A stretch of DNA of 47,336 bases from Candidatus Altarchaeum sp. (GTDB lineage: Archaea > Altiarchaeota > Altiarchaeia > Altiarchaeales > Altiarchaeaceae), in assembly GCA_018260615.1 (NCBI GenBank), contig JAGWDQ010000080.1:1-47336 (forward strand), read 5' to 3'. The translations under genes and the position numbers were made by a program. The notes below the pieces were generated by a model. The model saw only the letters and a program-made list of their open reading frames with translations. It was not told where the DNA came from and searched no databases. Position 1 is the stretch's first letter, and every line of letters starts with the position of its first letter. Below, one piece after another: positions 6,453-24,764 of the stretch.

Positions 6453-6537
6453 AATTGTTAACATATTAATTTTTGTTATTAAATTGAAGTGGTTGTTATG
6501 AGAACTAAAAATATAAAATCTGTCTACTGTTCGCAAA

Positions 6538-7851: not shown

Positions 7852-7921
7852 TAAGATGACAATTTAAATTTATAATTAAATTATTTTCATTATAATAAAC
7901 TAAAAATAAACAAAAACCAAA

Positions 7922-8413
7922 ATGACTTTATCAAATAAATCAGGAAATCAAAAAGAAAATTTTTTCGGAACAAGAAATGAACCTATAAGGAAAAGTATTT
8001 ATAAAACGGCCGGGATAATTGGATTTTTAGTAAAAGTACTACGAACAAAATATCCCGAAAAAAGAATAAGTCCTGCATATATTCAGAGAATTGGATATTT
8101 TTTAAAAAGAGAAAATGTAATAGATTTCAAGTATAGTATGTATCCTGATGGGCCTGGCTCCAATGCAATTTCAGTCGAACTTTCTGTTGCAACACATAAA
8201 AATATAGTAGAGATAAACTATTTGGAAGACAAAAAAGGATATTTTGTTGAACCCGGAGAAAACTTAAACAAAATGATTGACTTATTGACGAACGAAGAAA
8301 AGAATAAAATCAATAAAGTTGCAGATGAATTTGGACAATATGACTTAAGAGAACTTTCTGAAAAAGCAACAGATGTGTTTATCTTGAATCGCCCTACATT
8401 AAAATTTTCCTGA
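7922..8413 (+). CDS. YwgA/Panacea(DUF4065)-like winged-helix protein, partner of the HD gene
   Basis: IQRIGYFL...FKYSMYPDGPGS resembles the family pattern QKxxY...Y.YGP.S. Lies 70 bp downstream of the HD gene on the same strand. Confidence 0.55.
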   Translation: MTLSNKSGNQKENFFGTRNEPIRKSIYKTAGIIGFLVKVLRTKYPEKRISPAYIQRIGYFLKRENVIDFKYSMYPDGPGSNAISVELSVATHKNIVEINYLEDKKGYFVEPGENLNKMIDLLTNEEKNKINKVADEFGQYDLRELSEKATDVFILNRPTLKFS

Positions 8414-8563
8414 TAATCATGCTATTTTTATCACATATCTTAACCTTTCAAAAAAACAATCAATTATATCCGGGATCTCTTGGTTAAGGTGTTTTTTCTT
8501 TATTTTTTCATATTAAAATTTATCTGAGCACCAAAATAAACATAAAATAGAATAAAATTTGGA

Positions 8564-9400: not shown

Positions 9401-9559
9401 CTATTTATTATGTTGGATATTTATTCACTTACTGAATTATTCACCAACTGAATATTAAATTTAAAACCTTCAAATTACATATTTAAATACCTTCATAACT
9501 AAATTTTGAGAAGTTGAGGTTTATCTTTGTATTGTCGCTAATCTTTCAGACGATTAAAT

Positions 9560-11845
9560 TTACTTTGAAAACAAAAATTTTACGAGTTCTACATTTTTCT
9601 TATCCTTGTTGTATACCTTATGTCCAAATATAAATGCATATAGCAATGATAATATAACCAGCATGGTAATTAATAAACCCGCAGCAGACATAGTGACTTC
9701 CCTTGTTTTTTCTTCTTCAATTTTGCTTTTTTCGGTTTTAAAGAAGCTTACCTCTGCATCTTTATTATCCCCCCCAATCTTTTCTCTTTTATCCATCATA
9801 TCAGCATAACAATTTATTACATCATCATATTTTTCATTTTTTCCAAAAGGGTCAATAAATAACAATTTTGAAATTTCATCCTTTAATGTATTTATTTTTG
9901 CCTTATTTTGTCCTATTGAAATGTTATATGAGATGATTTTGTTATTTAATTCACTGATTGTGTTGTTTATCTCACCTTTATTTTCGCAACTAATTTTCCC
10001 GCATAAATCCAATACCTTATTATATTGTTCTACGGAGAACAACATATTGCTGTCTTTTGTTCTGTCCCCTTCATTTTTAAAATGATTTAAAAGATTGCCA
10101 ACTATCTCCTTAAAATATACATCTACATTTTTTTCAATATCTGTTATTTCTGTCTTATACTTCCCATATTTGTTTTTTAAATCGCTTATTGAATTTTTTT
10201 GCGAAATCATGTTTTCTACTTCTTTGTACGCTTCATTGTAATCATTAACATTTGTCTTGCTTTTGATTTTCAGGGTGGATGTTAGAAATGAGATTGTATA
10301 AGGGGAGATAAAATCATTACTATATATATCTGTTCGTATTTTTTCTATTAATGTCTTTGTTGCTGATATTATATTTTTCTCATAATTATTGGTGGCAGAA
10401 CTTTCCAGGTCCTTCAGTTTATTTAATGTCTCTGTTATGGAGACATCAGCCAAAATAAATTTTATATTGAGATTTTTCTCTCCCGCGTATTTTGTAGTTA
10501 TTTTGCCATCGCAGGCATATTCTCCTGTTCCGTATTCCTTATTAGTATTTATACTGACAGAAACATCATTTGAATTTCCCTGCTTTATATAACTATCAAT
10601 TCCGTTAAATTGTATCCAGTTTTTTAATCCGTCAAAAGATTCTTCTCTTCCTTGTTTTGTTGTTCTTTTACAGTTAGTTAATGAAATTACTAATCCTTCT
10701 ATAGGAGTGTATCCGTCGGTTTCAGAGATTTTAAATTTTTCTCCCGCCTTGTTTCCGGGGTCAATAGTATAAGTAAATATTGTCTTGTCAACACTCATTT
10801 TAGGAAAAGGAATTTCAAAATTAAATTTGTAACTACTGCTATCCCTGTCTTTTATATAGTCATTGCTGAGAGTTACGCCGCCATAATATTTTCCAGGTAT
10901 GACATTCCTTTCCGGAACAGCAACTCTTATTGTTATAGTTGTTTCTCCTCCGGCATTAATGTTAGAAATGTCATTAATTCCTTCTGCATTCATCCAGTTT
11001 GGAAATCCGCTGCTGCTCACGGAAATTTTTCCGGTACCTTTATAGCCCATTGTTTCTTTTATATTGAGCTTACTTTCATAACTATTCCCGGCCTTTAACA
11101 TATCTTTTATATCTGACTTAATTGAGGTTATTTCTACTTCAACAGGATAAATCACCCTGACACTAAAACTTATTGTTTTTTCTCCTGCATTTCCAGATGT
11201 TATCTTTATGGAACCCTGATATGTTTTTTCCTGTGCGGTTTCAGGGATTTCCACTCTGACAATAATATCATTGCTTTCTGTCAACCCCTGAATTGAAGAA
11301 ATTTCTGTTTGTGAAACAGTTGTCCAATTAGATAAGTCCCCGCTTTTTGTTATTTTTACAGTTTGCATTGGCAATAACCCGTCATTTTTTATAGTAAAGG
11401 ATTTTTCAAAAGCATAAGTTTTTTGTGATCCCTTTGGTTTATTAAATTCCGCTGTAAAACTCCCTTCAATAGTATTATCAGTTATAGTAAGAACAGGTTG
11501 TTTTGAATAAACATGAAAATTTAGTAGTGGCTTATCAGAAGAAGTATGAGTTCTAATTATCTCACTTGCATTGTTCATTACTTTTACTTCACAATTTACA
11601 TCGCTGTTTGCTGAGAATTTTCCTGTTGTTATGGTATGTGATGTTGATAATAAATAATTATCTGAAAAGGATGTTCCATTACATATCACTTCAATTTTGG
11701 CAGGAGTATCTGTTGTTATAGAAAAATTTACTATATCATCGTTTGAGATTATGGTTTGCGGATTTCTTTGAATTTCAGTATCTGCAAAAGATATTGGAAA
11801 AAGCAGGAACAGCAAAATTACAAATATTAATGAAAATTTAAACAT
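9560..11845 (-). CDS. Large exported, membrane-anchored protein: signal peptide, tandem Ig-like/CARDB-type beta domains, helical region, C-terminal TM and short tail
   Basis: Probable start MFKFSLIFVILLFLLFPISFA (ORF track start 11944). Repeated beta-sandwich-like units (ITIRVAVPE...PGKYYGGVTL; VRVEIPE...YQGSIKI). TM segment MSAAGLLITMLVILSLLYAFIFG. Confidence 0.75.
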   Translation of the reverse strand: MFKFSLIFVILLFLLFPISFADTEIQRNPQTIISNDDIVNFSITTDTPAKIEVICNGTSFSDNYLLSTSHTITTGKFSANSDVNCEVKVMNNASEIIRTHTSSDKPLLNFHVYSKQPVLTITDNTIEGSFTAEFNKPKGSQKTYAFEKSFTIKNDGLLPMQTVKITKSGDLSNWTTVSQTEISSIQGLTESNDIIVRVEIPETAQEKTYQGSIKITSGNAGEKTISFSVRVIYPVEVEITSIKSDIKDMLKAGNSYESKLNIKETMGYKGTGKISVSSSGFPNWMNAEGINDISNINAGGETTITIRVAVPERNVIPGKYYGGVTLSNDYIKDRDSSSYKFNFEIPFPKMSVDKTIFTYTIDPGNKAGEKFKISETDGYTPIEGLVISLTNCKRTTKQGREESFDGLKNWIQFNGIDSYIKQGNSNDVSVSINTNKEYGTGEYACDGKITTKYAGEKNLNIKFILADVSITETLNKLKDLESSATNNYEKNIISATKTLIEKIRTDIYSNDFISPYTISFLTSTLKIKSKTNVNDYNEAYKEVENMISQKNSISDLKNKYGKYKTEITDIEKNVDVYFKEIVGNLLNHFKNEGDRTKDSNMLFSVEQYNKVLDLCGKISCENKGEINNTISELNNKIISYNISIGQNKAKINTLKDEISKLLFIDPFGKNEKYDDVINCYADMMDKREKIGGDNKDAEVSFFKTEKSKIEEEKTREVTMSAAGLLITMLVILSLLYAFIFGHKVYNKDKKNVELVKFLFSK

Positions 11846-12147
11846 TTCTATTTTATAATTATTTACAAAAGTTTCCCATTTGAAGTTACGACATTCAAGC
11901 AAATCGTTTGAAGTTATCTTTTGTACGCTTAATTTATCTAACATTTTATAAATTTACACCAAAAATAACACATTTTGACCATGGATGCTGTGTTTGGACA
12001 TGTCTTTTTTATGAATTGGAAAACTTTTGTTATTTACGGTTGAAAACATTTTAAATTTAAAAACTTAAAAATAAACCTAAAAAAGACGAAAAAGGAAAAT
12101 GAGTAATAACTTTTCTCTTTAAAATACATGAAAATAATTCCAAAAGG

Positions 12148-15114
12148 TTACATGTAATCTGCATTAGTTCCGCTTCCGCCTGATTCTGTACTTTGTGATT
12201 GTGACTGGTAACTGCCTTTTCTTTCCGTAATCTGTCCTTTTGATGCTTCCTCTACAACACCCTTTATTTCTTCTATCCTTCCTTCCATATCACTAATGTG
12301 AAGTCGCAACTGGTCAATTCCATCTTTTAATTTATCGTATGAATTATTAATTTCCTCAATACATCTTTGTGCTTCATCTTTTTTCCTTATAACAAGCGAA
12401 TCCTTTTCTTCTACGGAGTCAATAGAATTTTTCATATCGTTTATTGCAAGTGACAACGCCTTTGAATTAAGCGTCTCGTATATCTTATTGGACATCTCTT
12501 TTACATCATCTATCCTTGATTCTCTTGCCATCTTTCGCATATTTTCAAATGTTCCCGGATCAAGTGAAGGTATTCGTGACGCTTCTAATTGAGATGATAG
12601 TGTTTTTATCATTTCTACGCTCTTTAAGAAATCATCACCTGTTTTGTTGACCTTCTTTGATGTCTCATCAAGCATCTTTTGTATCCGTTCAAGTTTTATC
12701 ACAACTTCCGGAAGTTTTTCTTTTTCTATTTTTGTTCCTTCGGTTAATTGTTTAAAGTCATTTGTCTTTATCTCCAAATCACTTAAAGTTGTAGTTATAT
12801 TCTTAATCAGAACTCTAACCATCGCCAGAGTTGGCGGAAGCTGGTACCATTTTTCTTCGGGACCCAGCATCTGATAATTTTGCCAAAACTTCAGTATCTC
12901 CTGATTCGTTCCTCTTAGGTCCGTTGAATCAACCATTTTTCCGGTCAACCTTTCATAATCCTGATAAGTTATAAAAAACAGCGAATGATGCTGAATTCTT
13001 GAATTTATATGAGTTCTATAATACATGTTTTCATAATTGTTCATAGTTCGTAATCTGGACGGCTTTCCGGGGGCAATAGGTGCAAACGAAATTCCAAATA
13101 ACAATCCGTAAATTATAAATTCGTAAGGGCTTGGCGCTGTAAGAAGTTTAACCTCTGCTTTAGAAGCAACATACTCCATCGCCTTTCCTTTTAGATCTTC
13201 TATTTGTAATTTTTCACTTGTTATGTTTCGCGGGTCGCTTGAAACGAGTGCAAGGTAAAAATTACATTTTGCGGTTTCAACTATCGGATGTTTATTTTTA
13301 TCTTCGGATAGTAAACCATAGTTTTTGATTTCTTTAAGTTCTTCATGACTTAAACCTGCTCCGGATGCTGCCGTATTTGAATGCACATAGTCTAGTAACG
13401 GATTAAATAAAGCATTTGCATTTGATATTGGTTTATGCGTAAGGTCAAGATATTCATTTTCTCTGCCAAGTTTTCTCATAATGTCTATGAAGCAGCTATT
13501 TTCAATATATCCTTTTAACTTATCAATATCACTATTGTTCAGTTCAATTGTTCTGCTTCTCAGAGTTCTAAAACCAGTATTTAGCTCATGCAATGTTTTT
13601 TCTTTTTCTATTTCTGTTTTTTCAACTTCTTTTTGTAATTCGTCTAATTTTTGCTTACAATCAGGAATCTTTCTTGTTTCTAATGTATAAATTGTTTCTT
13701 CTATTCTCTTTTTACTACTTCTTTCACTTTCTACATTATCTTTTATTGTCTTTATCTTTGATGAATGCAGTTTGGAAAAGATATCTTTTTCTGTTTGCCT
13801 TAATTTTTCGCCGAGATCATTTATCAGAGCTTCCTTTTTTTCAATATTCTCTTTCAAATTTTTTAAGTCGTAACTTGCTTTTTCGTATTCATCCAATGCC
13901 GTATCGTATTTTTTTTCTTTTTGTTCTTTCAACACATCTGACAGTGCGTAAAACCATTTAAGTTTTCTATACGGAAATATAACCCTGTAATATGAAAATG
14001 TTGAAAAATTGTGTACCCCCGTTGTGTAAGTAGCAAAATCAGCAATATCAAATGCACCTTTTTTCCCTGATGCCTTCACTGTTTCCTGTGGAACAAAACT
14101 CATATGCCTGATAAAATCAGCTACTGTAGGGGTAAATCTTTCCAGTGCTTCAGGACTATCACCTATTTCTTTTCTGTCTGCTATAAATAACGCATTAAAC
14201 ATAAGTTCATTGGAAGATAAAAGAAAATGCAATTCATTTAACAATCCATAAGCATTTGCCAGTTGAAGTGCTTCGTGAGGAAGCGGCAGGGTAACAATCC
14301 CCGTCATCATTAAACTATCAGATTTAAACTGTTCAGGAAAGTCATTTCTTATCATCATTGCAAGATCTGGAAACATTCCTGATCCGGTTCCTCCACCTGC
14401 GGCGGTTACTATAGTAATAAAAAAATTTCTTCTTCCTGTTTCTTCAACAAGCTGTGTTGCCCTTTTTCTTATTGATTCCAATATAAGTCCCTTATTAACA
14501 ACAAAATATTCTTTTCCGGCAATTCTCCGCATTCCTGCTCCACTCTCACTTGGCCAATATTCATTATCTAAGCACGCTCCAAACGCCTGCTGACATATTG
14601 CTCTGGCCGGAGGCGTAAGTTCTATGTGGAATATGCTCGGATTTATACTTGATGGCGGGGGGTTTGTATCCACAGCAATGATACTTACTCCTTTTTTTAA
14701 CAATCCTCTTTCTTCCTCTTTGATATCTGTTTTTGAAGAACATCCTTCTGTCACTCTTTGCTTTGGTTTTATTCCCAAATCACTTAGTTCTGTTATTTGT
14801 TTATCAATCTCATCTTTTACATCAAAATAATCAACATCCGGCATTTTAAATTTTTCTATGCTCTTTAGTAAAGCATCTGTTTTTTCTTCTATTCTCTTTC
14901 TTCTTTCGTCATATTTCTCTACATTCTTTATCTCGTCATTTGCAGAAATTATCCATCTTTCTATTGATTCAATAATGTCTTTCTTTTCTTTTTTAATTTC
15001 ACCTTCTTTTTGCATTAAGTTAACTATCTCATCCCCTATTTCTGTTGCAGCGCCGCCCAAACAGATAACTATTTTATTAGTATCAACAGATATTGTTTTA
15101 GTTGTTGAATCCAT
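12148..15114 (-). CDS. Tubulin/FtsZ-superfamily GTPase, FtsZl1/Tubulin_2-like, with three predicted coiled-coil segments (988 aa)
   Basis: T1-like ICLGGAATEIG, T2 AVDTN, T3 GAGMRRIAG, signature AGGGTGSG (14377-14397), ANAYGLLNEL, T7-like FDIADF (14038-14049). Long charged helical stretches lie after H1, in the centre and at the C-terminus. Confidence 0.85.
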   Translation of the reverse strand: MDSTTKTISVDTNKIVICLGGAATEIGDEIVNLMQKEGEIKKEKKDIIESIERWIISANDEIKNVEKYDERRKRIEEKTDALLKSIEKFKMPDVDYFDVKDEIDKQITELSDLGIKPKQRVTEGCSSKTDIKEEERGLLKKGVSIIAVDTNPPPSSINPSIFHIELTPPARAICQQAFGACLDNEYWPSESGAGMRRIAGKEYFVVNKGLILESIRKRATQLVEETGRRNFFITIVTAAGGGTGSGMFPDLAMMIRNDFPEQFKSDSLMMTGIVTLPLPHEALQLANAYGLLNELHFLLSSNELMFNALFIADRKEIGDSPEALERFTPTVADFIRHMSFVPQETVKASGKKGAFDIADFATYTTGVHNFSTFSYYRVIFPYRKLKWFYALSDVLKEQKEKKYDTALDEYEKASYDLKNLKENIEKKEALINDLGEKLRQTEKDIFSKLHSSKIKTIKDNVESERSSKKRIEETIYTLETRKIPDCKQKLDELQKEVEKTEIEKEKTLHELNTGFRTLRSRTIELNNSDIDKLKGYIENSCFIDIMRKLGRENEYLDLTHKPISNANALFNPLLDYVHSNTAASGAGLSHEELKEIKNYGLLSEDKNKHPIVETAKCNFYLALVSSDPRNITSEKLQIEDLKGKAMEYVASKAEVKLLTAPSPYEFIIYGLLFGISFAPIAPGKPSRLRTMNNYENMYYRTHINSRIQHHSLFFITYQDYERLTGKMVDSTDLRGTNQEILKFWQNYQMLGPEEKWYQLPPTLAMVRVLIKNITTTLSDLEIKTNDFKQLTEGTKIEKEKLPEVVIKLERIQKMLDETSKKVNKTGDDFLKSVEMIKTLSSQLEASRIPSLDPGTFENMRKMARESRIDDVKEMSNKIYETLNSKALSLAINDMKNSIDSVEEKDSLVIRKKDEAQRCIEEINNSYDKLKDGIDQLRLHISDMEGRIEEIKGVVEEASKGQITERKGSYQSQSQSTESGGSGTNADYM

Positions 15115-15147
15115 TTTTAAATTGTAGGTTTAGGATATTTATAAATT

Positions 15148-15729
15148 TTAACGATTCTCATCAAGAGGTTTTTCATTTCTTATTCCTCCAAGTTTCTCGC
15201 TACCGCGCGAAGCTGTTTCACTACCCCTTTTTACTTTATCACTAATTTCTTTTGCATCTTTTTCTTTTTCCTTTATTCCTATATTTTTATCAAGACCTTC
15301 TATCTTTTTATTATTTGCAAAAAATGCTATCATGCCACCAACTCCAATAAACACCAGTCCAATTATGGCCCCTGCATTTAACAACTTCATCTGTGATGCT
15401 CCGCCTTCTATAACCTGTGTAAAGACCAGTAAATACAATATAAGCCCTATTCCAAGCAAAATACCTCCAATTAGAATTAATGAGAACCCCATTTTATATA
15501 CGCCATTCCAAAATTCAGTAGGGATTTCTTCTTTCCCCCAGCTTTTTAATGCCCGATATGCCATTATCATTCCAGCAATAATAAGAATAACTGATATTAT
15601 ACCCCAAAGAATATCATATATTAAATATTCTTTCTTGTCTAAAAAACCAGTAAGTTTTGCAATTAACCACACACCTGCGGCTAAAAATCCAAACCCGAGT
15701 ATTGCTACTCCTACATTACTTTTCCCCAT
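15148..15729 (-). CDS. Four-TM membrane protein with charged C-terminal tail
   Basis: Four hydrophobic segments and a Lys/Glu-rich tail. First gene of the minus arm, 33 bp upstream of the 988-aa gene. Confidence 0.8.
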   Translation of the reverse strand: MGKSNVGVAILGFGFLAAGVWLIAKLTGFLDKKEYLIYDILWGIISVILIIAGMIMAYRALKSWGKEEIPTEFWNGVYKMGFSLILIGGILLGIGLILYLLVFTQVIEGGASQMKLLNAGAIIGLVFIGVGGMIAFFANNKKIEGLDKNIGIKEKEKDAKEISDKVKRGSETASRGSEKLGGIRNEKPLDENR

Positions 15730-15810
15730 TTTTATTGTATAAAAATTTTATTTGATTAATAATTTAACTTTTAAAAATAAATTCAATAATATTTTTTATT
15801 ATAAATTAGA
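15730..15810. promoter_or_regulatory. Divergent promoter region of the tubulin-like locus
   Basis: 81-bp almost pure A/T gap between head-to-head starts 15729(-) and 15811(+). Individual TATA/BRE boxes cannot be assigned reliably. Confidence 0.5.
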
Positions 15811-17589
15811 ATGGATATTAAATTTAAATTTATTTTTGGATTGTTTTTGATTTTTGTATTGTGCAGTTATTCATACTCACAGGAAAATTATTTATCTGAA
15901 AGTGCAGAACCATTGTGGAGTTTTAAAGACATATCAAATATCGCGTGGGCTGTTGGAATGGATGAAGATGCCCAAAACATAATTGCTACTTCTTCAGATG
16001 GAAATATTTATCTGACAGATATAAATGGTAATCTAAAGAAATCATATAAATTTTCACTTGAAGAGTCCGGTAAGATTCTTGATTCAGGCGCTGGAAATAA
16101 AGACAACAAAATTTCTACAATTGTTGCTGCCGGAACAAAGGTGTGCCTGATAAATATGGTCGATAAAAAAGAGGAATGGTGTAAGTCCGTTTCTAAAAAT
16201 GAGTCATTCTGGGCCGTCTCAATGTCTAAAAACGGAAAATTTTATGTGACAGGAACATCCAGCGGAAATGTTGAACTTTATGATGAAAAAGGTAATAAAA
16301 AGTGGGAATATAAAATTCCTGTGAGTGCAAAAAAAATTGTCTGGAAGGGTGTCTCTGTTTCAAATGACGGAGAAGTAGCAGTAACTTCTTATGAAAATAT
16401 TTTTGTGCTGAAGGATGGAAACACCTTATGGAATAAATCTTTGTCAGAAAATATTGAAACAGTAAAAATTACACAAAACGGAAAATATGTTGCTTGCGGA
16501 TGCAGAGATGGAAGGATTCATATTTTTGATAATGGGGCCGAAAAAGGAAAGGAAATAAAGGTTTTGGAGAGTGGAGGAGGGTCAATAAAAGATATTTCCC
16601 TAAATGAAGACGGATTTGGAAGTATATGCGAGGCACAAACATTTCACTACATTTATATTTTCAGCGAAGGAACTACTGTAAAAGATGTTGAAATTTATTA
16701 TAAGCAATTCGGTGTTGAATTGACATCAACGGAAATTTCAAAAAACGGAAGATATGTTATTGTATCTCCGGCAACAGAAGGCAGCAAAGGAATTTACTTT
16801 TTTGATTCGCATGAATATATAAAAAACTATATGGGAAGGGTGAAACAAAAAATAAATGGTTGTGTTGAAACAGCGAAAAAAATTGGAATGAATGTAAGCG
16901 ATGTTGAAGAAAATGTTAAAAAAATTGATATCTGTATAGAGGACGAGAATTATAAACTTGCAATTGAAGAAGGTAAAAATACAAACAGAATGTGCGAAGA
17001 TAAAATATCAGGTTTGAGAAAAGAAGCTGAAAACAGAATTTCTGAAGTTGATAATGAAATAGAACAAAAAAGAAAAGAAGGGCATGATGTAGAAGATGCA
17101 GAAAAATGTATTAATGAATCAAGGGAATTATTTAGTTATTCACAATACAAAAAAGCAAAAGATAAGGCGGATGAATGTCATAAAATAATTAATCCTCCGC
17201 CATTTCCTGTATTTTTAGTTATCCTCCTCGCCGTAGTTATTATTGCAGTTATTCTCTGGTTCCATAGTAAAAAGAACCCCGATCCTGTTGAAGAAGAAAT
17301 GAAGGAATGGGAAAATAAGGGCTTTGATGTTCCTTTTGAATTAAAAAAAGAAATAGAAAAACAAAAAGATAAAATTTACACATACAGAGAGAGAATAGAA
17401 AGTGCCTCACTGTTAATCAGAGATGTCAATGAATTACTGAAAAATGCAACATCAAAGGAAAGAGATGAAATAGAAGAATTTAAGGAAAAAATTTATAATG
17501 ACTGGTATAAAAAAGATGAAAAAACAAATGTCTGGAGAATTGAACAATTAAAGGATGAATTTTTCAAAATAAAAAGAAACATAAGGTGA
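15811..17589 (+). CDS. Single-pass membrane protein: signal peptide, WD40/PQQ-like beta-propeller, helical stalk, TM, ~105-aa cytoplasmic helical domain
   Basis: Repeats such as WAVSMSKNGKFYVTGTSSGNVELYD and VKITQNGKYVACGCRDGRIHIFD. TM segment PPPFPVFLVILLAVVIIAVILWF. Confidence 0.8.
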   Translation: MDIKFKFIFGLFLIFVLCSYSYSQENYLSESAEPLWSFKDISNIAWAVGMDEDAQNIIATSSDGNIYLTDINGNLKKSYKFSLEESGKILDSGAGNKDNKISTIVAAGTKVCLINMVDKKEEWCKSVSKNESFWAVSMSKNGKFYVTGTSSGNVELYDEKGNKKWEYKIPVSAKKIVWKGVSVSNDGEVAVTSYENIFVLKDGNTLWNKSLSENIETVKITQNGKYVACGCRDGRIHIFDNGAEKGKEIKVLESGGGSIKDISLNEDGFGSICEAQTFHYIYIFSEGTTVKDVEIYYKQFGVELTSTEISKNGRYVIVSPATEGSKGIYFFDSHEYIKNYMGRVKQKINGCVETAKKIGMNVSDVEENVKKIDICIEDENYKLAIEEGKNTNRMCEDKISGLRKEAENRISEVDNEIEQKRKEGHDVEDAEKCINESRELFSYSQYKKAKDKADECHKIINPPPFPVFLVILLAVVIIAVILWFHSKKNPDPVEEEMKEWENKGFDVPFELKKEIEKQKDKIYTYRERIESASLLIRDVNELLKNATSKERDEIEEFKEKIYNDWYKKDEKTNVWRIEQLKDEFFKIKRNIR

Positions 17590-17600
17590 AATAAATTTTA

Positions 17601-18323
17601 ATGATGAACTTCACAAATTTTTTTACCAAAAAGAAGGATGAAAATAATGAAAATATAAGAAAAGAAAAGATTGATGAGTTACGGAATCTTGAAATAAGGT
17701 TGTATGGAGAGTCCATAAAGAGTGAGGAGTTCAAATTAAGGTCTGAAATTCCTGCTGATGAAATTGAAAAAGCGACTGAAAATATGAAGCAATTATTGAA
17801 TATCCGGGATGAAACGTTGAGGATGATAGAACAATATGAAAAGACACATAAACATATAAGCAAAGAAGATTTTTACAAAATATTTGAAAATAAACAGGAT
17901 GCGGATATATTCTGGATTGTTTATAATAAAAATAAAAGGGCTGACAGGAGTGATAATGAGGAAGAGAAAAGAAGGATAAGACAATTAAAAAACGAATGTA
18001 TTGAAATTGTTCCCGGCGAAAATGAGTTTATTGATTTACGGCTCAAATGGAAAAATTTTGTTGAAAATGTGAGTGATGAACATTATCTGGCTGACCTTAA
18101 GATATATGCGGAAAAATTTTTATCAAAAAACAAAATAGAAAAAATAATAGAACCCTTGTTTGAAAGACACTCAAAAAATATAACCAATGTTTATGATGTT
18201 TATAACAGATTAAGCAACAGTTTTGAAAATGCAGATGAATTAAGAGGAAACAATATCGGAAAAGAAATGAAAAAAGAGATTGCAAACATAATATATAACA
18301 GATTAACCTTAAAGAAATTTTAA
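17601..18323 (+). CDS. Soluble charged alpha-helical hypothetical protein
   Basis: 240 aa, no TM. Its stop codon directly abuts the next ATG (TAAATG). Confidence 0.75.
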   Translation: MMNFTNFFTKKKDENNENIRKEKIDELRNLEIRLYGESIKSEEFKLRSEIPADEIEKATENMKQLLNIRDETLRMIEQYEKTHKHISKEDFYKIFENKQDADIFWIVYNKNKRADRSDNEEEKRRIRQLKNECIEIVPGENEFIDLRLKWKNFVENVSDEHYLADLKIYAEKFLSKNKIEKIIEPLFERHSKNITNVYDVYNRLSNSFENADELRGNNIGKEMKKEIANIIYNRLTLKKF

Positions 18324-19565
18324 ATGTCAAAAATTTTGAACTTTGGACTGGGACAGGCGGGAATAAATTTGGCACTGAATATTTACAAAGAAGCGGGAAG
18401 GCCGGAAACAAGTTCCCTGGAAAATATTGGTTTTTTTATCGGAGACATTCAGCCAATAGAAACATCACAGGAAACACATAAAGAAGCAAAACGACTGGGT
18501 TTAGATTTAGAAAGATTATTCGGACATAAAAAAAGCATCCTGTTTCCTACGGCAGCATGCCTAAACCAGATACAGATAACAAGCGAGAATTATGAATATG
18601 TGAGAAGGTCGTGGCTTATATCCGGAAAGATTGCCGAAGATTTTTTGAACGGAGAGAAATCAAAAGAAGATAACAAATTTTATGGGAAGGATGGAATCAT
18701 AAACAGGATTAAAACAATAAATACAGATGATTTGTGGATAAACATAGTGAATGCCGGGGGCGGTGGAACCGGAGTTGGCTGCGGACACCTTTTTGGTGAA
18801 AAAATCAGGAAAGATATGAACAAAAAACCGGGGTCAATTTTAACGACAACAATTGTTCTGCCTTATAAAAACGAGGAACATTCCATAATGTCCGAAGTAA
18901 ATGCAATATGCAACATAGGGCTATGTCATAAGACATCAGATGCTATAATAATTGCTGATAATGAATATATGGAAAAAAGAGAGAAGGTCAATGAAATGTA
19001 TGGAAAATGGACCGCAAATTTAACAGAATGTAACATACCTAATCTTCATGAATTTTTTAAAAGGACAGGAAACAACAAAAAACCGCCGGTAATTGTTCCC
19101 TCTTTTGTTGAAAAGGATAAGGACTTTTGGGATACTCTCAAGCTGGAATTTTTAATAGAGGATGCATTGTATGAAGGAAAAATGGCTGATTGCGATTTAG
19201 AAAAATCAATGGAAATTTACATTGATGTTACTTTGCCAAATAACTATAAAGAAAAGATTACGGGCAGAGAATTAGAACAAAAAATAGAAGAAGATATGAA
19301 AAAAAACGGTAAAAATATTAAAGTAACAATAGATATTAAAAAACCAAGATCAAACAAACTTAAAATATGTTCATTTATTGCATTATCAAATACTCCCCGC
19401 CTTAATGAATTAAATGAAATTTTCGGAGAGTTCATTGCTAATGAAGAAAAAATGAATGAAATTTTAAACAAGTGTAATTCTTCAAACATTACGATTTCAT
19501 TAGAAGAATTAGAAAAGATATATAAAAATTTAAAAGACGATATAGATGAATTTTTAAAAGAATAG
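18324..19565 (+). CDS. Divergent tubulin/FtsZ-superfamily protein with degenerate T3/T7 loops (413 aa)
   Basis: T1 FGLGQAGINL, variant signature NAGGGGTGVG (18756-18779), IVLPYKNE, DAIIIADNE. The expected T7 DxxD position reads NIPNL (19032-19046) by my alignment. Confidence 0.85.
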   Translation: MSKILNFGLGQAGINLALNIYKEAGRPETSSLENIGFFIGDIQPIETSQETHKEAKRLGLDLERLFGHKKSILFPTAACLNQIQITSENYEYVRRSWLISGKIAEDFLNGEKSKEDNKFYGKDGIINRIKTINTDDLWINIVNAGGGGTGVGCGHLFGEKIRKDMNKKPGSILTTTIVLPYKNEEHSIMSEVNAICNIGLCHKTSDAIIIADNEYMEKREKVNEMYGKWTANLTECNIPNLHEFFKRTGNNKKPPVIVPSFVEKDKDFWDTLKLEFLIEDALYEGKMADCDLEKSMEIYIDVTLPNNYKEKITGRELEQKIEEDMKKNGKNIKVTIDIKKPRSNKLKICSFIALSNTPRLNELNEIFGEFIANEEKMNEILNKCNSSNITISLEELEKIYKNLKDDIDEFLKE

Positions 19566-19585
19566 TAAAAATTTAATAATTCAGA

Positions 19586-19628
19586 TATTTAATTATTTTA
19601 AAAATGTATTTAATTATTTTAAAAAATG
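19586..19628. repeat. 21-bp tandem duplication spanning the start codon of the 284-aa gene
   Basis: TATTTAATTATTTTAAAAATG at 19586-19606, repeated at 19607-19628 with one extra A, which puts the second ATG out of frame. Confidence 0.7.
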
Positions 19629-20458
19629 AGCAACTTAAGTTTTTGATGGCTGCATTTATATTGTTTGTCTTTGCTTTTGCAGGAAATGCCCATGCAACAA
19701 ACGGACCTGACGGGAGCAATTCTACAGATAACTATACGGGCAACAATAATACAACACAGGCAAATGAATCAAACGAATTACAAAACATTTCTGATGAGCA
19801 ATCCCAATTATCAACTGTGGATTTCTATTGTGATATGGATGGGGACGGATTTACTGGCGAAGAATCTTCCATATCTTGTCCTTCGGATGTCAGTTCTATG
19901 AACTGTAATCTAACCAAAATTTCTAATTGTGATGTAATTGACAGGCAGAATGAGAGCATTATCCTTTTATATGAAAATACCAGAATAAACTGTTCTGTTA
20001 AAAGAGGTGTTGACTGTAATGACCATAGTCCTTCAATAAACCCGAATGCCGCTGAAATATGTAATGGGATTGATGATAATTGTAACAACAAGACCGACAA
20101 CGACGAAAAAGAAGACATTTGTCCTCTTCTTTTATACTACTGTGACAGAGATGGAGACGGCTTTATAAGTATATTGCCATCCGGAAATTGTTCAACATTT
20201 AATTGTATTCCGTCAAAATGTCAAAATGAAAGCAGAGATGACTGCGATGATAACGATGCTGCAATAAATACAACCGCAAATATGAAAGAAGTGATATTGA
20301 AGCATAATAAGACCAGAGAAATAAATTTAACAGCAACAAAAATGGAAAATTCAAAAATTTTAATAAATGTCGTTTCGCTGTTGTTTTATCTTTTTGTGGC
20401 ATTTGCCGTCGTTGTTGTTTTATCATGGATCGTTTTCAGGGAAAAATTTCATCACTAA
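19604..20458 (+). CDS. Exported Cys/Asp-rich protein with putative metal-binding (MopE-related, PF11617-like) and DxDxDG motifs and a C-terminal TM
   Basis: DCNDHSPSINPNAAEICNGIDDNCNNKTD matches the recalled DC.D....I.P.A.EIC.GID.NC consensus. Also CDMDGDGF, CDRDGDGF, DCDDNDAAIN, signal peptide AFAGNAHA and a TM near the C-terminus. Confidence 0.82.
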   Translation: MYLIILKNEQLKFLMAAFILFVFAFAGNAHATNGPDGSNSTDNYTGNNNTTQANESNELQNISDEQSQLSTVDFYCDMDGDGFTGEESSISCPSDVSSMNCNLTKISNCDVIDRQNESIILLYENTRINCSVKRGVDCNDHSPSINPNAAEICNGIDDNCNNKTDNDEKEDICPLLLYYCDRDGDGFISILPSGNCSTFNCIPSKCQNESRDDCDDNDAAINTTANMKEVILKHNKTREINLTATKMENSKILINVVSLLFYLFVAFAVVVVLSWIVFREKFHH

Positions 20459-20488
20459 AATACAGGTGGAAAAATAAAAATTACAAAA

Positions 20489-20932
20489 ATGGAAAATTTT
20501 AATAAATTTAAAGGGGCTATGGGATGTATCTTAATAGCATTATTTTTTGTTTTACTTTTAGCCGGAAATACATCTGCCGAAAATAAAACAACCGAATGTG
20601 ACAAAACAATTAGCGGGTTTTTACAAATAGAAAATCTCACTGCTGTTGATGAAAATTATAAAAAAGCAGAACAATCATTAGAAAACACAACTAATGAGTG
20701 TAAAAATGATTCGCTTTTATTCAAAATATTAGGTGTGATTATTGGAATTGCTCTCGGACTGGTTTTAACAAAGAAATGGATTGACAGAATGAAATACGAA
20801 CATATCTATAAAGTTCCTGACTTTATATGGATATTAAAAACCGGAGGAATGATAACTGTGGCAGGAATAATTTTAATTATTATAATAGGACTAATCATCG
20901 GAATTGATACTCTTACAAACATTTTATTTTAA
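20489..20932 (+). CDS. Small membrane protein (signal/anchor plus two TM)
   Basis: Three hydrophobic segments. Stop is 1 bp before the next probable ATG (20934). Confidence 0.7.
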   Translation: MENFNKFKGAMGCILIALFFVLLLAGNTSAENKTTECDKTISGFLQIENLTAVDENYKKAEQSLENTTNECKNDSLLFKILGVIIGIALGLVLTKKWIDRMKYEHIYKVPDFIWILKTGGMITVAGIILIIIIGLIIGIDTLTNILF

Positions 20933-20933
20933 G

Positions 20934-21920
20934 ATGAATATAAAAAACATATTTTTCATGTGCCTGATTCTATTCATATTTCTATTTATGGGAAATGTGT
21001 ATGGGGACAAAACGGTTGAGGAGCTGCGCAAAGACATTTCAAATATTAATACTGACTCGTCATATTCCGAGCCGGGACAGATACAAAGAACATGTCTGTC
21101 CTGGTTGTATGGAAAAGATACATACAGCAGCAACCCGAATGTGAATAAATTTACTTATGAAGTTAAATCGTTTCTTGAAAATTTTATGAGTTTGGACAAA
21201 AAGAGAATCAATGATGTAAATTCAAGAGAAGAAATGTTGAAAAATGCACCTGATTTAAAGAGTATAATTTCTCAAATGGAGGAAACATACAATTACAATT
21301 TACGCTCGGATGAAGGCAAACAGGATATAAGTGAAATAATCAAACTTTCAAAAAGCGGCTTAACAAACATGCTGGAAGATACCGGGAGTTTTTTTGAAGA
21401 AAAAGGAAATAATGAAAAAATAACAATAAAGAAAATAGAACTTCTTGAAAACGCATTGAAATGTTATAACACAACGACATCAATTGGAGGAAATATCCCC
21501 GAAGAGTTAAACAAAAAGGTCTCTGAAACAAAAATGTCTTTTTATGAAGACATAGAAAAAGCGGGAAATTCTGTCAGTGAAGGAGAAAGATATTACAACG
21601 AAACATTAAATAACAGGCAAATGACAACCATAAAAAAGGCAACTGAAAATTACAATATCGCAATTTCAATCTATGAAAAGCATAACATCCCGATGTTATC
21701 CGGTTCCGAAAAATATAAAAGTTATTACGATGCGTATAAAGATGCGACTTATAAGATGGATGAAGCAAATAAATTAGAAAATGAATTACAGACATCATTT
21801 TATATGTTTGTTGGAATAGGTGCTATAATTTTAATCATAATATTTTCTACAATATTCAGAGGACTCTCATCTTATAAAAGAGATGAAGAAAGGATGAAAA
21901 TAACAAAAATTTTCAGATAA
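20934..21920 (+). CDS. Exported helical protein with C-terminal TM and short tail
   Basis: Probable start MNIKNIFFMCLILFIFLFMGNVYG (ORF track start 20904). TM FYMFVGIGAIILIIIFSTIF, tail SYKRDEERMKITKIFR. Confidence 0.75.
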   Translation: MNIKNIFFMCLILFIFLFMGNVYGDKTVEELRKDISNINTDSSYSEPGQIQRTCLSWLYGKDTYSSNPNVNKFTYEVKSFLENFMSLDKKRINDVNSREEMLKNAPDLKSIISQMEETYNYNLRSDEGKQDISEIIKLSKSGLTNMLEDTGSFFEEKGNNEKITIKKIELLENALKCYNTTTSIGGNIPEELNKKVSETKMSFYEDIEKAGNSVSEGERYYNETLNNRQMTTIKKATENYNIAISIYEKHNIPMLSGSEKYKSYYDAYKDATYKMDEANKLENELQTSFYMFVGIGAIILIIIFSTIFRGLSSYKRDEERMKITKIFR

Positions 21921-21944
21921 AAATTTAACCTTTAAATTAACAAA

Positions 21945-23126
21945 ATGGTCCAGGTTGTCGTTGGTGTTGGTCATTGCGGAACAAAGATAGTTGATGAGAT
22001 ATATGAAAATAAGGAAATGTTTGAATTGACATATCCCATAGCATTAAATAGCGAAGCACAGGAATTAATGCAGCTTCACAATTTAAAGGAGGATAAATGG
22101 GTAGGGATAACCGGAAACGGAGAATTAGTATCTACTAAGGGTTCTATATTCGGAAAAACATTTGGGAAAAAAGAAAATTTTATTTTTAGAAATGAAGTAC
22201 GGGGTGGATTTGGAAATGACCCCGAAAGAGCCGAAGAAGTAATAAATAAGAATAAGGACTATTTCAAAAATTGTTTAGATGCAATATTTCCGGGAGATAA
22301 AATAAATTATGCGTACATTTTTCTCGGACTTGGAAGCGGAACCGGAGCGGGTGTTTCTCCTGAGATAGCAAAATATTTAAAAAACAGATATCCAACTACA
22401 AAGGTCATTGCCGTAGGAGTCATGCCAGGTAAAAGTGAGGGAGGACGCCGGGCTTATGCTGCAAGGTATGGCATGGAACAAATAGCAGAATTTGCAGATA
22501 GCTTTATATTGGTTGATAATGAAAGAATATTCAAAGAAAAAAATATAGAATTGGCTTATACAAAATATAATAAATTTGTTGCAAATTTCTTCTATCACCA
22601 AATTGGGGGAATATTCAAACATAAAATAGACCCGAGCAAATATTCTGCATGGTCGGGAAAGGTTGTCGATAATGCGGACTTACTAACAGCAACAATGTTT
22701 AAAACAGGAAATAAACGATATGTTTCTGCAATATCCTCGGAACCTATAATAGTAGCGCCTAAATTAAGATATATTTTAGACAAATTAAAATTGGGCGGTC
22801 TTGCAGGAGCAAATATCCCTACATCAGACGGGATGAAAAAATATTTTGAAGACGCTGTCTCTCATTTAACAGTAACTGTTGAGGATTTAAAAAATGTTGA
22901 AAAGGGCTTTTGTAATCTTGTGATTCCGGACAAACTTGCAAATAAAGAAATTCAGGATAAAGTAATAAGAGATAAACTGGCAGAAATATGTAAAACAGAG
23001 TATCATTTTGGTGCATCATTAACAAAGGGCTATGTGATGTATTTAAATTTATGCCTGACAATGAATGTTGAAAATGTCGGACGGCTACATGAAATATATG
23101 AAATGGCAGATAAATTTAAGCCATGA
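21945..23126 (+). CDS. CetZ/FtsZ-like tubulin-superfamily GTPase with intact T7 loop (393 aa)
   Basis: T1 VGVGHCGTKIVD, ALNS, T3 GGFGNDPE, variant signature GLGSGTGAG (22326-22352), VMPGKSEG, FILVDNE, T7 VVDNAD (22662-22679). Confidence 0.9.
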   Translation: MVQVVVGVGHCGTKIVDEIYENKEMFELTYPIALNSEAQELMQLHNLKEDKWVGITGNGELVSTKGSIFGKTFGKKENFIFRNEVRGGFGNDPERAEEVINKNKDYFKNCLDAIFPGDKINYAYIFLGLGSGTGAGVSPEIAKYLKNRYPTTKVIAVGVMPGKSEGGRRAYAARYGMEQIAEFADSFILVDNERIFKEKNIELAYTKYNKFVANFFYHQIGGIFKHKIDPSKYSAWSGKVVDNADLLTATMFKTGNKRYVSAISSEPIIVAPKLRYILDKLKLGGLAGANIPTSDGMKKYFEDAVSHLTVTVEDLKNVEKGFCNLVIPDKLANKEIQDKVIRDKLAEICKTEYHFGASLTKGYVMYLNLCLTMNVENVGRLHEIYEMADKFKP

Positions 23127-23279
23127 TGGTTGAGTTGCAAATGAATTGGAACAAAAATTGGCTATTTATAAGAGGGGATGATATTTAAAAATTATGTCAA
23201 AAATTTTAAAGATTGTTGATTTTTTTAGGCACTGTAAAAAGCGTGGCTTTTATTTTCTGAATCTGCGATAATCTCTCGC

Positions 23280-23660: not shown

Positions 23661-24764
23661 TTATTTCAGATGAGTGTATTTTTTAGTTATCGGGTCAACT
23701 GCTATTTTTTCTCCGGTTGAGTTGGCGATATAACCAGGATAACCATATTTTCCAGCGGTGGATTCTAAAATCACGCACTGTTGGCCATCTATTTGATAAT
23801 AAGATATTTCTTTGTCTTTCATAAGTTCGGAAGTGGAATAGGAATAATAAAATGCTACACCCAGGTCAACGGTTGCATCATTGGAATTGTTGTTCACAAG
23901 TACTAACCCGCTACCAATAGATAAATGCCCACAAGATTCACTCGTTTTTAAAATATTTTGTTTTTTACAAGAGGCATAATGAGTAAATGTATCGTCTTTG
24001 CTCAGAAGCGCAAAATCATTTTTTGTCGGAACAACATAAACTGTGAGAGGTTGTGAGGAAGAGATATTATATTTTATATTCATAAAATCTATTGGTGCGG
24101 TAAAATTTGAAATGTTACTGCCATAATAGTAATTGTATCTTTCAGGCAGAACAAAAGTTTCCTTTTTTTCGCTTACAATGAAAAGATTCTCATCTTCAAT
24201 GACAACTTTGTAATACCCTCTTTTTTCAATATCCTTTGAGAATTGAGCAACAACATCTTCTTTTACATATTGTTCCATGTTTTTGGTATTTATTCCGCAG
24301 GCAAGAGAATAGGTATGATTATCAGTTAAAACAATGTATGTTTTAATGCCTATATTTTCTAAAAGTGAATTAAGCAAAATTGTTAGATCTTCGCAATCTC
24401 CACCTTTAATATCCATAGTTTCATCTGGAGATTGAATATATTCCTGACCTGTCGGATCGCTGTAATACTTGTAATTTTCAACTATGTATAAATATATTTT
24501 ATTTAATTGGCATTCTTTATCCCCGGAAGGGCAATCTCCGGCAATAGAAGCAGCTTTACTTCTTAAATTTTTGTCTTTAAATATGATTTTAGTCATGTAT
24601 GGTTCCGCCCTCTGAATTACAGAATCATTTGATTTTTCATCGGAAGATAATTCCTCACTATCATTTTGATACTCTTCCTCATCTTCAGTTTGGATACACC
24701 CACTAATAAAAATTACTAAAATCAAGAGCAGCCCAATAATAATTTTTGTGATTTCACACTTCAT
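23661..24764 (-). CDS. Transglutaminase-like cysteine-protease-domain lipoprotein
   Basis: Lipobox-like FISGC, YYSDPTGQEYIQSPDET, catalytic-type GDCEDLTILL, NHTY. Confidence 0.85.
   Translation of the reverse strand: MKCEITKIIIGLLLILVIFISGCIQTEDEEEYQNDSEELSSDEKSNDSVIQRAEPYMTKIIFKDKNLRSKAASIAGDCPSGDKECQLNKIYLYIVENYKYYSDPTGQEYIQSPDETMDIKGGDCEDLTILLNSLLENIGIKTYIVLTDNHTYSLACGINTKNMEQYVKEDVVAQFSKDIEKRGYYKVVIEDENLFIVSEKKETFVLPERYNYYYGSNISNFTAPIDFMNIKYNISSSQPLTVYVVPTKNDFALLSKDDTFTHYASCKKQNILKTSESCGHLSIGSGLVLVNNNSNDATVDLGVAFYYSYSTSELMKDKEISYYQIDGQQCVILESTAGKYGYPGYIANSTGEKIAVDPITKKYTHLK

Follow-up and report, generated by a model that had tools for sequence, protein, structure and literature searches.

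A divergent ten-gene locus of Altiarchaeum with three tubulin-superfamily proteins and a predicted connection to the cell envelope

In the uncultivated groundwater archaeon Altiarchaeum, ten genes, three of which encode distinct members of the tubulin superfamily, lie in two divergent arms within a 47,336-nucleotide (nt) stretch of DNA, hereafter called the window, to which all coordinates refer unless a contig or locus is named. We regard this block, with moderate confidence, as the form that a conserved archaeal system for coupling tubulin-like proteins of the cytoplasm to the cell envelope takes in Altiarchaeum. The locus is a fusion of two kinds of gene cluster that have been described but are uncharacterised: an FtsZl1 module and a “twin tubulin” envelope cluster. 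What is new here is the presence of both modules in one divergent locus, a conserved probable pseudo-GTPase (g6) with a predicted partner (g5), and a set of conserved cytoplasmic motifs. The block is more than a chance assembly because it is conserved as such in a second species and because its core families co-occur in distant archaea. The genes are labelled g1 to g10, with g1-g3 on the minus arm and g4-g10 on the plus arm:

g1, 9560-11944, minus strand: 794 amino acids (aa); exported single-pass protein with a signal peptide, an immunoglobulin (Ig)-like/helical ectodomain, a transmembrane (TM) segment at 755-773 and a 21-aa cytoplasmic tail
g2, 12148-15114, minus strand: 988 aa; FtsZl1/Tubulin_2 protein, no TM segment
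g3, 15148-15729, minus strand: 193 aa; four TM segments by hydropathy, charged cytoplasmic tail
Divergent intergenic region, 15730-15810, no strand: 81 base pairs (bp), almost pure A+T as read directly from the sequence
g4, 15811-17589, plus strand: 592 aa; exported beta-propeller protein; TM segment at 465-483, cytoplasmic tail of about 110 aa with coiled coil
g5, 17601-18323, plus strand: 240 aa; soluble helical protein, no TM segment; its stop abuts the start of g6
g6, 18324-19565, plus strand: 413 aa; divergent tubulin-fold protein, no TM segment
g7, 19604-20458, plus strand: 284 aa; exported protein rich in Cys and Asp, with a metal-binding motif of the MopE type; C-terminal TM segment
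g8, 20489-20932, plus strand: 147 aa; signal peptide, short ectodomain, two-TM hairpin with a cytoplasmic loop
g9, 20904-21920, plus strand: 338 aa as called; exported helical single-pass protein with a 20-aa cytoplasmic tail
g10, 21945-23126, plus strand: 393 aa; CetZ-like tubulin-superfamily GTPase, no TM segment

The ten open reading frames (ORFs), the 81-bp divergent gap and the plus-arm intergenic gaps of 0-38 bp agree to the base with the original prediction, and the membrane topologies that it had proposed are borne out by hydropathy: g1, g4, g7 and g9 combine a signal peptide with a C-terminal TM segment, and g8 has a signal peptide followed by two TM segments. The gap at 15730-15810 presumably holds the promoters for both arms. 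With the TTG start that was called for it, g9 would overlap g8 by 29 bp; an ATG at position 20934 falls on the first Met, which is invariant in the family alignment, and is probably the true start, which would yield a protein of 328 aa. The presence of three distinct tubulin-superfamily proteins was confirmed by searches with hidden Markov models (HMMs), in which g6 and g10 match Pfam Tubulin and g2 matches Tubulin_2, all above cut-off, and by a T4 signature in each of them (GGGTGSG in g2, GGGTGVG in g6 and GSGTGAG in g10). It had also been remarked that no vWA or Ras-like partner was recognisable, and indeed none of the ten proteins has a Pfam or NCBIfam match to a vWA or small GTPase domain. 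Pfam likewise detects no DNA-binding domain among them.

The ten genes constitute one unit of inheritance, placed in different genomic contexts in two species and kept under purifying selection. The genome under study (G000; 2.2 Mb, 87% complete) has a sister species (G003) in which all ten genes occur in identical order, with 69-85% protein identity except for g7. The shared stretch corresponds to positions 9501-23127 of the window; the sister contig stops about 160-220 bp beyond g1, and the comparison of flanks thus covers the g10 side only, where blastn of the sister contig gives no match beyond this stretch. The CDP-alcohol transferase gene that flanks the locus in the window is found on a different contig in G003, and in two other sister genomes (G001 and G002) the sequence after this gene is unrelated to the locus. 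All ORFs are intact in both species, and the ratio of non-synonymous to synonymous substitution rates (dN/dS) ranges from 0.12 to 0.43 over the ten genes. The sharing of the whole block in another context speaks for the earlier view that the ten genes act as one unit. The two versions are not fully identical in content: between the g4 and g5 orthologs, the contig of G003 (C41, L015:12192-14771) carries an additional gene for an 859-aa membrane protein bearing one signal peptide and three C-terminal TM segments, which has no counterpart in the window. With single-protein queries, orthologs of g6 and g10 were detected in two of 61 Altiarchaeota genomes.

Members of the same families are clustered in other archaea. 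Family HMMs and jackhmmer were used to assign the genes of 15 loci. Contexts of g6-family proteins were annotated in this way, and so were nine loci for which the g10 family had served as an independent seed. The g10 family, the g6 family and FtsZl1 occur together in Altiarchaeales WOR_SM1_79 (L039), in an ANME-2 metagenome-assembled genome (MAG; L044), in a Methanoperedens MAG (L045) and on two near-identical contigs (L040 and L043). The g10 and g6 families occur without FtsZl1, within the regions examined of up to about 15 kb on each side, in L041, in Methanoperedens MAGs (L048 and L051) and in an Archaeoglobaceae MAG (L049). A g6-family gene lies within 10 kb in six of the nine g10-seeded loci; for two of the remaining three, the genome has such a gene on a different contig. 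Furthermore, the g6 family is present in six of 301 sampled Halobacteriota genomes, four of these six being complete chromosomes. Four complete haloarchaeal genomes hold, in one cluster, members of the g10, g6 and g1 families together with a third tubulin-like gene (535-652 aa; detected by HMM in three of them); a g9-family gene is part of the cluster in three of the four, no separate g9-family ORF being called in G239. The core set of g10, g6, g1, g9 and hairpin families is thus co-located, which places the locus among the archaeal twin- or three-tubulin envelope clusters. The g10- and g6-family trees share groupings, with the Altiarchaeum cluster copies on long branches; since the relatives share labels, these trees do not constitute a test of co-evolution. 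The taxonomic label of one contig, L043 (DATKUV010000141.1, “Candidatus Nanoarchaeia archaeon”), or of its bin is itself doubtful, since the CetZ-like protein encoded there is 98% identical to that of L040 and 89% identical to that of an ANME-2 contig.

The original prediction held that non-co-location of homologs in any other genome would speak against it, an objection that falls away with these loci. It also knew of no description of this combination of genes, and here it has to be corrected: the minus arm is the FtsZl1/Tubulin_2 module of Makarova & Koonin (2010), and the plus-arm core plus g1 is the cluster of haloarchaea, Methanoperedens/ANME-2 and Archaeoglobaceae. Parts of the latter have surfaced in the literature. 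CetZ-like proteins of Altiarchaeota are among those listed by Santana-Molina et al. (2023), who also describe “Halo.Tub” genes which, in Halobacterota, lie quasi-tandem among coiled-coil proteins of unknown function (PMC9871819), and patchily distributed “non-canonical TSF proteins” are mentioned by Brown & Duggin (2023; PMC9856176). The Altiarchaeum locus resembles the haloarchaeal multi-tubulin cluster in its g10, g6, g1 and g9 families and in having a protein of hairpin topology in the hairpin position. It differs in that the third tubulin-like protein of haloarchaea, of 535-628 aa, is not FtsZl1, in that no g5-like gene precedes the haloarchaeal g6-family gene, in gene order, with g1 next to g9 in haloarchaea and on the other arm in Altiarchaeum, and in that g6 is degenerate in Altiarchaeum whereas haloarchaeal members keep the T7 Asp.

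Sequence comparisons identify g3-g2 as an archaeal FtsZl1/Tubulin_2 module. g2 matches Pfam Tubulin_2 (PF13809) with an E-value of 3.2e-14 (53.4 bits against a cut-off of 27) and is the only gene of the genome above this cut-off. Few relatives of g2, as of g10, are retrieved by a word-indexed protein search; by BLAST, g2 aligns over 687-916 columns at 25-26% identity with the Tubulin_2 proteins P0012 and P0013, and likewise with those of L039 and L040. The Tubulin_2 relatives derive from a Thermoplasmatota MAG and from metagenomes. The AlphaFold2 (AF2) model of g2 has a mean predicted local distance difference test (pLDDT) of only 63.6 and consists of a GTPase head, a confidently predicted coiled-coil hairpin (382-513), a poorly predicted middle part and a helical region (759-961). 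In this model, the GTPase domain is interrupted by a helical insertion of about 100 aa (approximately residues 21-112) that is absent from other family members, and, at the same low confidence, strands S1-S6 with their helices appear to run directly into the coiled coil. Foldseek returns FtsZ, CetZ and TubZ as the sole matches of the model, over about 200-270 columns.

These features agree with the FtsZl1 family as it was defined, in which T6-H7 and the C-terminal domain were not found (PMC2875224). Like FtsZl1, g2 has a GGGTGSG motif, inserts between T1 and T4, a long coiled-coil extension, membrane-associated neighbours and a small membrane protein encoded directly upstream. Its low-confidence model contains no recognisable canonical C-terminal tubulin domain. 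Unlike the FtsZl1 operons described in 2010, the present locus lacks vWA, small GTPase and kinase genes, and its FtsZl1 module is joined head-to-head to two more genes of the tubulin superfamily along with the membrane partners of these. The upstream membrane protein is a recurrent companion: in seven loci (L035, L037, L039, L040, L043, L044 and L045) a protein of 172-220 aa with 3-5 predicted TM segments, mostly four, is encoded directly before the FtsZl1 gene. A weak match to the Pfam family DUF4199 is common to g3 and to the upstream protein of L037. g3 is therefore probably the membrane partner of g2, and FtsZl1 with its small multi-TM protein is a separate conserved pair that has been joined to the twin-tubulin core in Altiarchaeales and ANME-2/Methanoperedens.

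On the plus arm, g10 matches Pfam Tubulin at 4.7e-22, its sole Pfam domain, and has no FtsZ_C. Its best sequence match in the PDB is CetZ1 (4b46, 2e-14), and the g10-family profile finds its best matches in the CetZ structures 3zid, 4b46 and 4b45. The match to the division FtsZ model TIGR00065 of NCBIfam is far below threshold (68 bits against a cut-off of 295). g10 retains T1, T4 and T7 (DxxD), and a full-length alignment of the family (30-34% identity) preserves the T7 DxxD, with D242 and D245 invariant; the dN/dS of g10 is 0.12. Both g10 and g6 are closer to CetZ than to FtsZ or tubulin in sequence, profile and predicted fold, and neither has FtsZ_C or Tubulin_C. Unlike CetZ itself, they score only 57-92 bits against CetZ compared with more than 330 within their own families (for g10, 540 bits against 57-90 bits to CetZ structures), their families have dedicated membrane partners, a neighbourhood not reported for CetZ genes, and g6 is devoid of T3 and T7. 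The scores suggest that g10 belongs to a separate “CetZ-like” family. Its nearest relatives (P0006 and P0007) are a solo gene and a gene on a 2-kb contig, whose contexts are uninformative.

The second tubulin-like protein of this arm, g6, is divergent. It matches Pfam Tubulin at 2.4e-9 (38 bits against a cut-off of 33), without a TIGR00065 match or FtsZ_C that would relate it to division FtsZ; compared with tubulin proper, phmmer gives E-values of 0.005 or worse and no Tubulin_C is detected. A word-indexed search returns same-genus orthologs only, whereas a profile search of 1.8 billion representatives yields 61 nameless full-length relatives of 400-460 aa below 1e-10, their sources being Altiarchaeales and MAGs that carry the labels Nanoarchaeia, Thermococci and Methanosarcinales. 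The closest named relative outside the genus is that of Altiarchaeales WOR_SM1_79. The AF2 model of g6 (pLDDT 84.5, predicted template modelling score 0.89) is a complete two-domain tubulin fold, for which the best PDB match is CetZ1 (4b46, TMt 0.78), followed by beta-tubulins (TMt ~0.6); the g6-family profile also ranks CetZ structures first. The family consensus is G-[VA]-G-[NG]-x-[WF] for T3 and [DE]-x-x-D-[YF] for T7. In the cluster copies of Altiarchaeum, T3 reads YVRRSW and T7 is shortened to I-P-N-L, while T1 and T4 are retained. g6 is thus a probable pseudo-GTPase, having lost T3 and the acidic residues of T7, and its dN/dS of 0.17 argues for a conserved pseudo-GTPase rather than a decaying gene.

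Directly before the g6-family gene, five loci (L039, L040, L043, L044 and L045) encode a soluble protein of 282-338 aa in the position of g5. Complex prediction for g5 and g6, one of the checks suggested at the outset, gave an ipSAE of 0.61 (0.70, 0.61 and 0.57 in the individual runs), compared with 0.01 for the best of three controls. The mark applied to this score is met by 58 of 80 solved complexes and by 2 of 110 mismatched pairs, a calibration which, since own alignments were used here, holds only roughly. The runs share at least 87% of the contacts, with a partner pLDDT of at least 54. The predicted interface involves residues 267-284 and 324-330 of g6, in its C-terminal domain, and residues 64-100 of g5. 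The modelling thus supports binding of g5 to g6.

Pairs consisting of an active and a non-activating subunit are known from alpha/beta-tubulin and from BtubA/B, which form heterodimers. There is an analogy in that g10 keeps the catalytic T7 residues that the co-encoded g6 lacks, and both genes are under purifying selection. Unlike these tubulins, g6 and g10 are not sister paralogs, g6 is also without T3, and an unrelated helical partner, g5, is predicted to sit on its C-terminal domain.

The remaining genes encode membrane proteins, several of which belong to the conserved core. jackhmmer searches with a deliberately large database size (Z=1e5) find homologs of g1 only as exported single-pass positional equivalents of 685-793 aa in L041, L044, L046, L048, L049 and L051, and the g1-family HMM scores 233-313 bits in the four haloarchaeal genomes. 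The Ig domain that had been proposed for g1 is not clearly seen in g1 itself, where only a sub-threshold match to NPCBM_assoc (E 0.0044) is obtained; g1-family relatives do have Ig-like matches, of which one, to HYDIN/VesB-like Ig, reaches significance (44 bits; cut-off 25.5). g9 is homologous, again by jackhmmer with large Z, to proteins of 308-337 aa encoded beside g1-like genes, eight members of which could be aligned over their full length. Since the g1-family HMM also matches g9 (23 bits), these two proteins are distantly paralogous. In most lineages, g1-like and g9-like genes lie next to each other; here, each arm has one of the two. g1 lies on the FtsZl1 arm and has g9 and g10 as its family partners elsewhere, and the two modules are therefore interleaved in this locus. 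A possible role of g1 as a subunit of the hamus, or grappling hook, was considered and set aside on the published description of the hamus protein. The hamus protein is described as a soluble 97-kDa beta-sandwich whose sole predicted TM helix is the N-terminal signal region (PMC4460559), and g1 is set apart from it by its C-terminal TM anchor.

g8 aligns with the two-TM hairpin region of a family of 264-412-aa proteins (hhalign 88%, E 2.9e-6; 26.5 bits with the family HMM), whose gene follows the g10-family gene in other clusters. By sequence, g8 is thus a short member of this hairpin family of proteins of about 300 aa. The cytoplasmic parts of these families carry conserved motifs: in the tails of the g1 and g9 families, a juxtamembrane motif that reads roughly [YW]-x-[KR]-D and, after a spacer of 4-6 residues, [LM]-G-[DN], and in the loop of the hairpin family KW..Y..Y (also given for g8 as KW..x..Y..Y). 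These tail and loop motifs are candidate docking sites for filaments.

The two other surface proteins are of a different nature. g4 matches many Pfam beta-propeller/WD40 models at about 1e-11, and its homologs are found beside the Methanoperedens cluster L048. g7 contains the MopE metal-binding motif (PF11617, 1.5e-10) and is the most variable gene of the block, with 284 aa here and 429 aa in the sister species (43% identity by BLAST, 60% over 255 alignable residues). Its repeats recur in several large surface proteins of the genome (on contigs C84, C60, C117 and C130). g7 is a fast-evolving, lineage-specific surface module and g4 an accessory one.

From these elements a working scheme can be put together. 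g10 would form GTP-dependent, CetZ-like filaments beneath the membrane, and g6, held by g5 on its C-terminal domain, might cap or nucleate these filaments or be a partner in them that does not hydrolyse. Docking of the filaments to proteins with Ig-like and helical ectodomains outside the membrane would fall to the tails of g1 and g9 and to the cytoplasmic loop of g8. A second membrane-bound GTPase arm could be provided by FtsZl1 (g2), with g3 as its tether and the coiled coil as its extension, and g4 (propeller) and g7 (Cys/Asp-rich) would be exchangeable, lineage-specific surface modules. As a whole, the system would place or pattern structures of the envelope or surface from the inside, be it local shape, surface layer or contact sites, and would not serve division. 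The original prediction of a trans-envelope machine fares unevenly against this background. The link across the membrane has become more plausible with the conserved tail and loop motifs, and single-pass and hairpin membrane proteins with extracellular domains are indeed encoded beside the three tubulins. A copolymer of all three tubulin homologs is unlikely as stated, since the low-confidence model of g2 contains the N-terminal GTPase domain only and g6 has lost T3 and T7.

A bolder version of this scheme would see here a transmembrane cytoskeletal linkage of a kind new to prokaryotes, in which peptides of surface proteins dock on CetZ-like filaments, g6 clamped by g5 caps or nucleates them, and the FtsZl1 arm is recruited in some lineages; we consider it speculative and, as a whole, rather unlikely. 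In the case of FtsZ, it is its own C-terminal peptide that binds membrane anchors. Docking peptides on the surface proteins would be the inverse of that arrangement, and the role of g6 as a cap or nucleator can be likened to that of gamma-tubulin or of a non-exchangeable tubulin subunit.

A number of observations speak against the working scheme. The cluster is rare and patchy, being present in two of the four genomes of the genus in addition to its low frequency in the sampled Halobacteriota. Profile-profile similarity to the positional equivalents is weak both for g3 (hhalign 20%, E 1e-3; controls below 1%) and for g5 (hhalign 23%). The tails of g1 and g9 at this very locus have diverged and are without the LGD end, which their paralogs on C79 and C68 keep. 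g10 carries GSGTGAG instead of GGGTG, and the long branches of g10 and g6 add to the impression that the Altiarchaeum copies may work differently from the rest of their families. The literature yielded no paper on the membrane partners, on a three-family cluster or on experiments with any of its members, and the Altiarchaeum literature that was found does not mention the cluster. Finally, the modules are separable.

Separability speaks for the alternative that two or three independent systems merely lie side by side, with no physical or functional link, an FtsZl1 module (g3-g2, perhaps with g1) and a CetZ-like module (g8-g9-g10 with g5-g6). FtsZl1 and its small multi-TM partner stand alone, without the other two tubulins, in L035 and are accompanied by vWA and another tubulin type in L037; conversely, the clusters of haloarchaea, Archaeoglobaceae and some Methanoperedens do without FtsZl1 in the stretches covered, of up to about 15 kb on each side. 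However, the same juxtaposition is seen in two families of Altiarchaeales and in ANME-2/Methanoperedens, the position of g1 on the FtsZl1 arm interleaves the modules, the block is inherited whole, and the subgroup of g6 found with FtsZl1 is a distinct clade. Independent systems are an unlikely explanation.

A second alternative, somewhat less probable still, is a membrane-remodelling or vesicle-forming machine in which the tubulin-like GTPases deform the membrane and the exported proteins are cargo or coat. It can draw on the membership of g2 in FtsZl1, for whose operons a role in membrane remodelling was predicted from their vWA, GTPase and membrane-protein neighbours (PMC2875224), and on the fact that nearly all partners in the locus are membrane proteins. 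That role is itself a prediction from sequence and gene context, though, and there is no sign here of the vWA and small-GTPase partners that had lent it support. Moreover, the locus has no ESCRT- or dynamin-like component, and the conserved partners are type-I proteins with large ectodomains, a better fit to anchoring than to scission.

Improbable, too, is an accessory, horizontally mobile island that serves in conflict or in a niche, be it for variable display at the surface, for the exclusion of viruses or as a TubZ/PhuZ-like tubulin system of an element, in place of a housekeeping cytoskeleton: the distribution is indeed patchy, with another genomic context in the sister and absence from two other genomes, g7 is hypervariable, some related loci adjoin group II introns or McrBC, and further members of these families are scattered over the genome as a second set, but no PADLOC or PHROGs family matches the locus proteins beyond an incidental WD40-repeat match, no integrase and no flanking direct or inverted repeat was found at the block borders, nor any TubR-like adaptor or nuclease, the haloarchaeal copies are chromosomal, and all ten genes are under purifying selection. 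The absence of a DNA-binding adaptor (by Pfam) and of phage-type protein families, apart from that one match, together with flanks of chromosomal housekeeping genes, also distinguishes the locus from TubZ and PhuZ. In any case, mobility of the block and a structural role are not mutually exclusive.

The dispersed set comprises a g10-family gene (C53:30286-31416), a g6-family gene (C114:16791-18122), a g1-family gene (C79:29122-31122) and a g9-family gene (C68:53126-54097). The tails of the dispersed copies keep the consensus motif better than those of the clustered copies. The g6-family gene on C114 is followed by genes for Kelch-like and CARDB surface proteins, and each of the four genomes of the genus has a CetZ-like gene of the C53 type, which also occurs in a further family of the phylum. 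In total, the genome has eight Tubulin-domain matches: the three genes at the locus, three FtsZ units in two genes on C60, and solo genes on C53 and C114. For division the genome has separate FtsZ genes, with FtsZ_C, which are those of contig C60. At C60:8578-12262 (L033:5579-9263), an 832-aa ORF contains two complete FtsZ units (Tubulin and FtsZ_C, twice) in frame and is followed by a third FtsZ of 353 aa. Such a tandem-fused FtsZ would be unusual, and an artefact of assembly or reading frame is possible.

The surroundings of the block hold a few further features. A transglutaminase-core protein with an N-terminal hydrophobic segment is encoded at 23661-24764 on the minus strand, convergent to g10, and another one is found in the related cluster L041 (13411-15066). 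The gene was considered as an eleventh member and rejected, being absent from three sister genomes and outside the shared block. On the other side, HD-domain (dNTPase-like) and Panacea-like genes (window 6458-8551) are absent from two sister genomes in which the flanks abut, and this pair is therefore an insertion specific to the present genome. In G003, a second copy of the 3' end of the CDP-alcohol phosphatidyltransferase gene lies some 750 bp away from the complete gene (contig C61, L072:148-299).

What the relatives of tubulin do in archaea beyond FtsZ and, in part, CetZ, and how they connect to the envelope, is a largely open question on which this locus bears. It provides a parts list that is conserved from Altiarchaeota to haloarchaea, namely two tubulin-fold families, two paralogous single-pass surface proteins and a hairpin protein, complemented in some lineages by FtsZl1 and its anchor. 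The candidate contact sites, i.e., the tail and loop motifs and the predicted g5-g6 interface, are amenable to mutation. Altiarchaeum is uncultivated, but since complete haloarchaeal chromosomes carry versions of the cluster as well, cultivable relatives are open to tests of the hypothesis. Altiarchaeum itself offers a natural experiment, with a conserved protein of tubulin fold whose catalytic loops are lost and with clustered and dispersed sets of the same families in a single genome.

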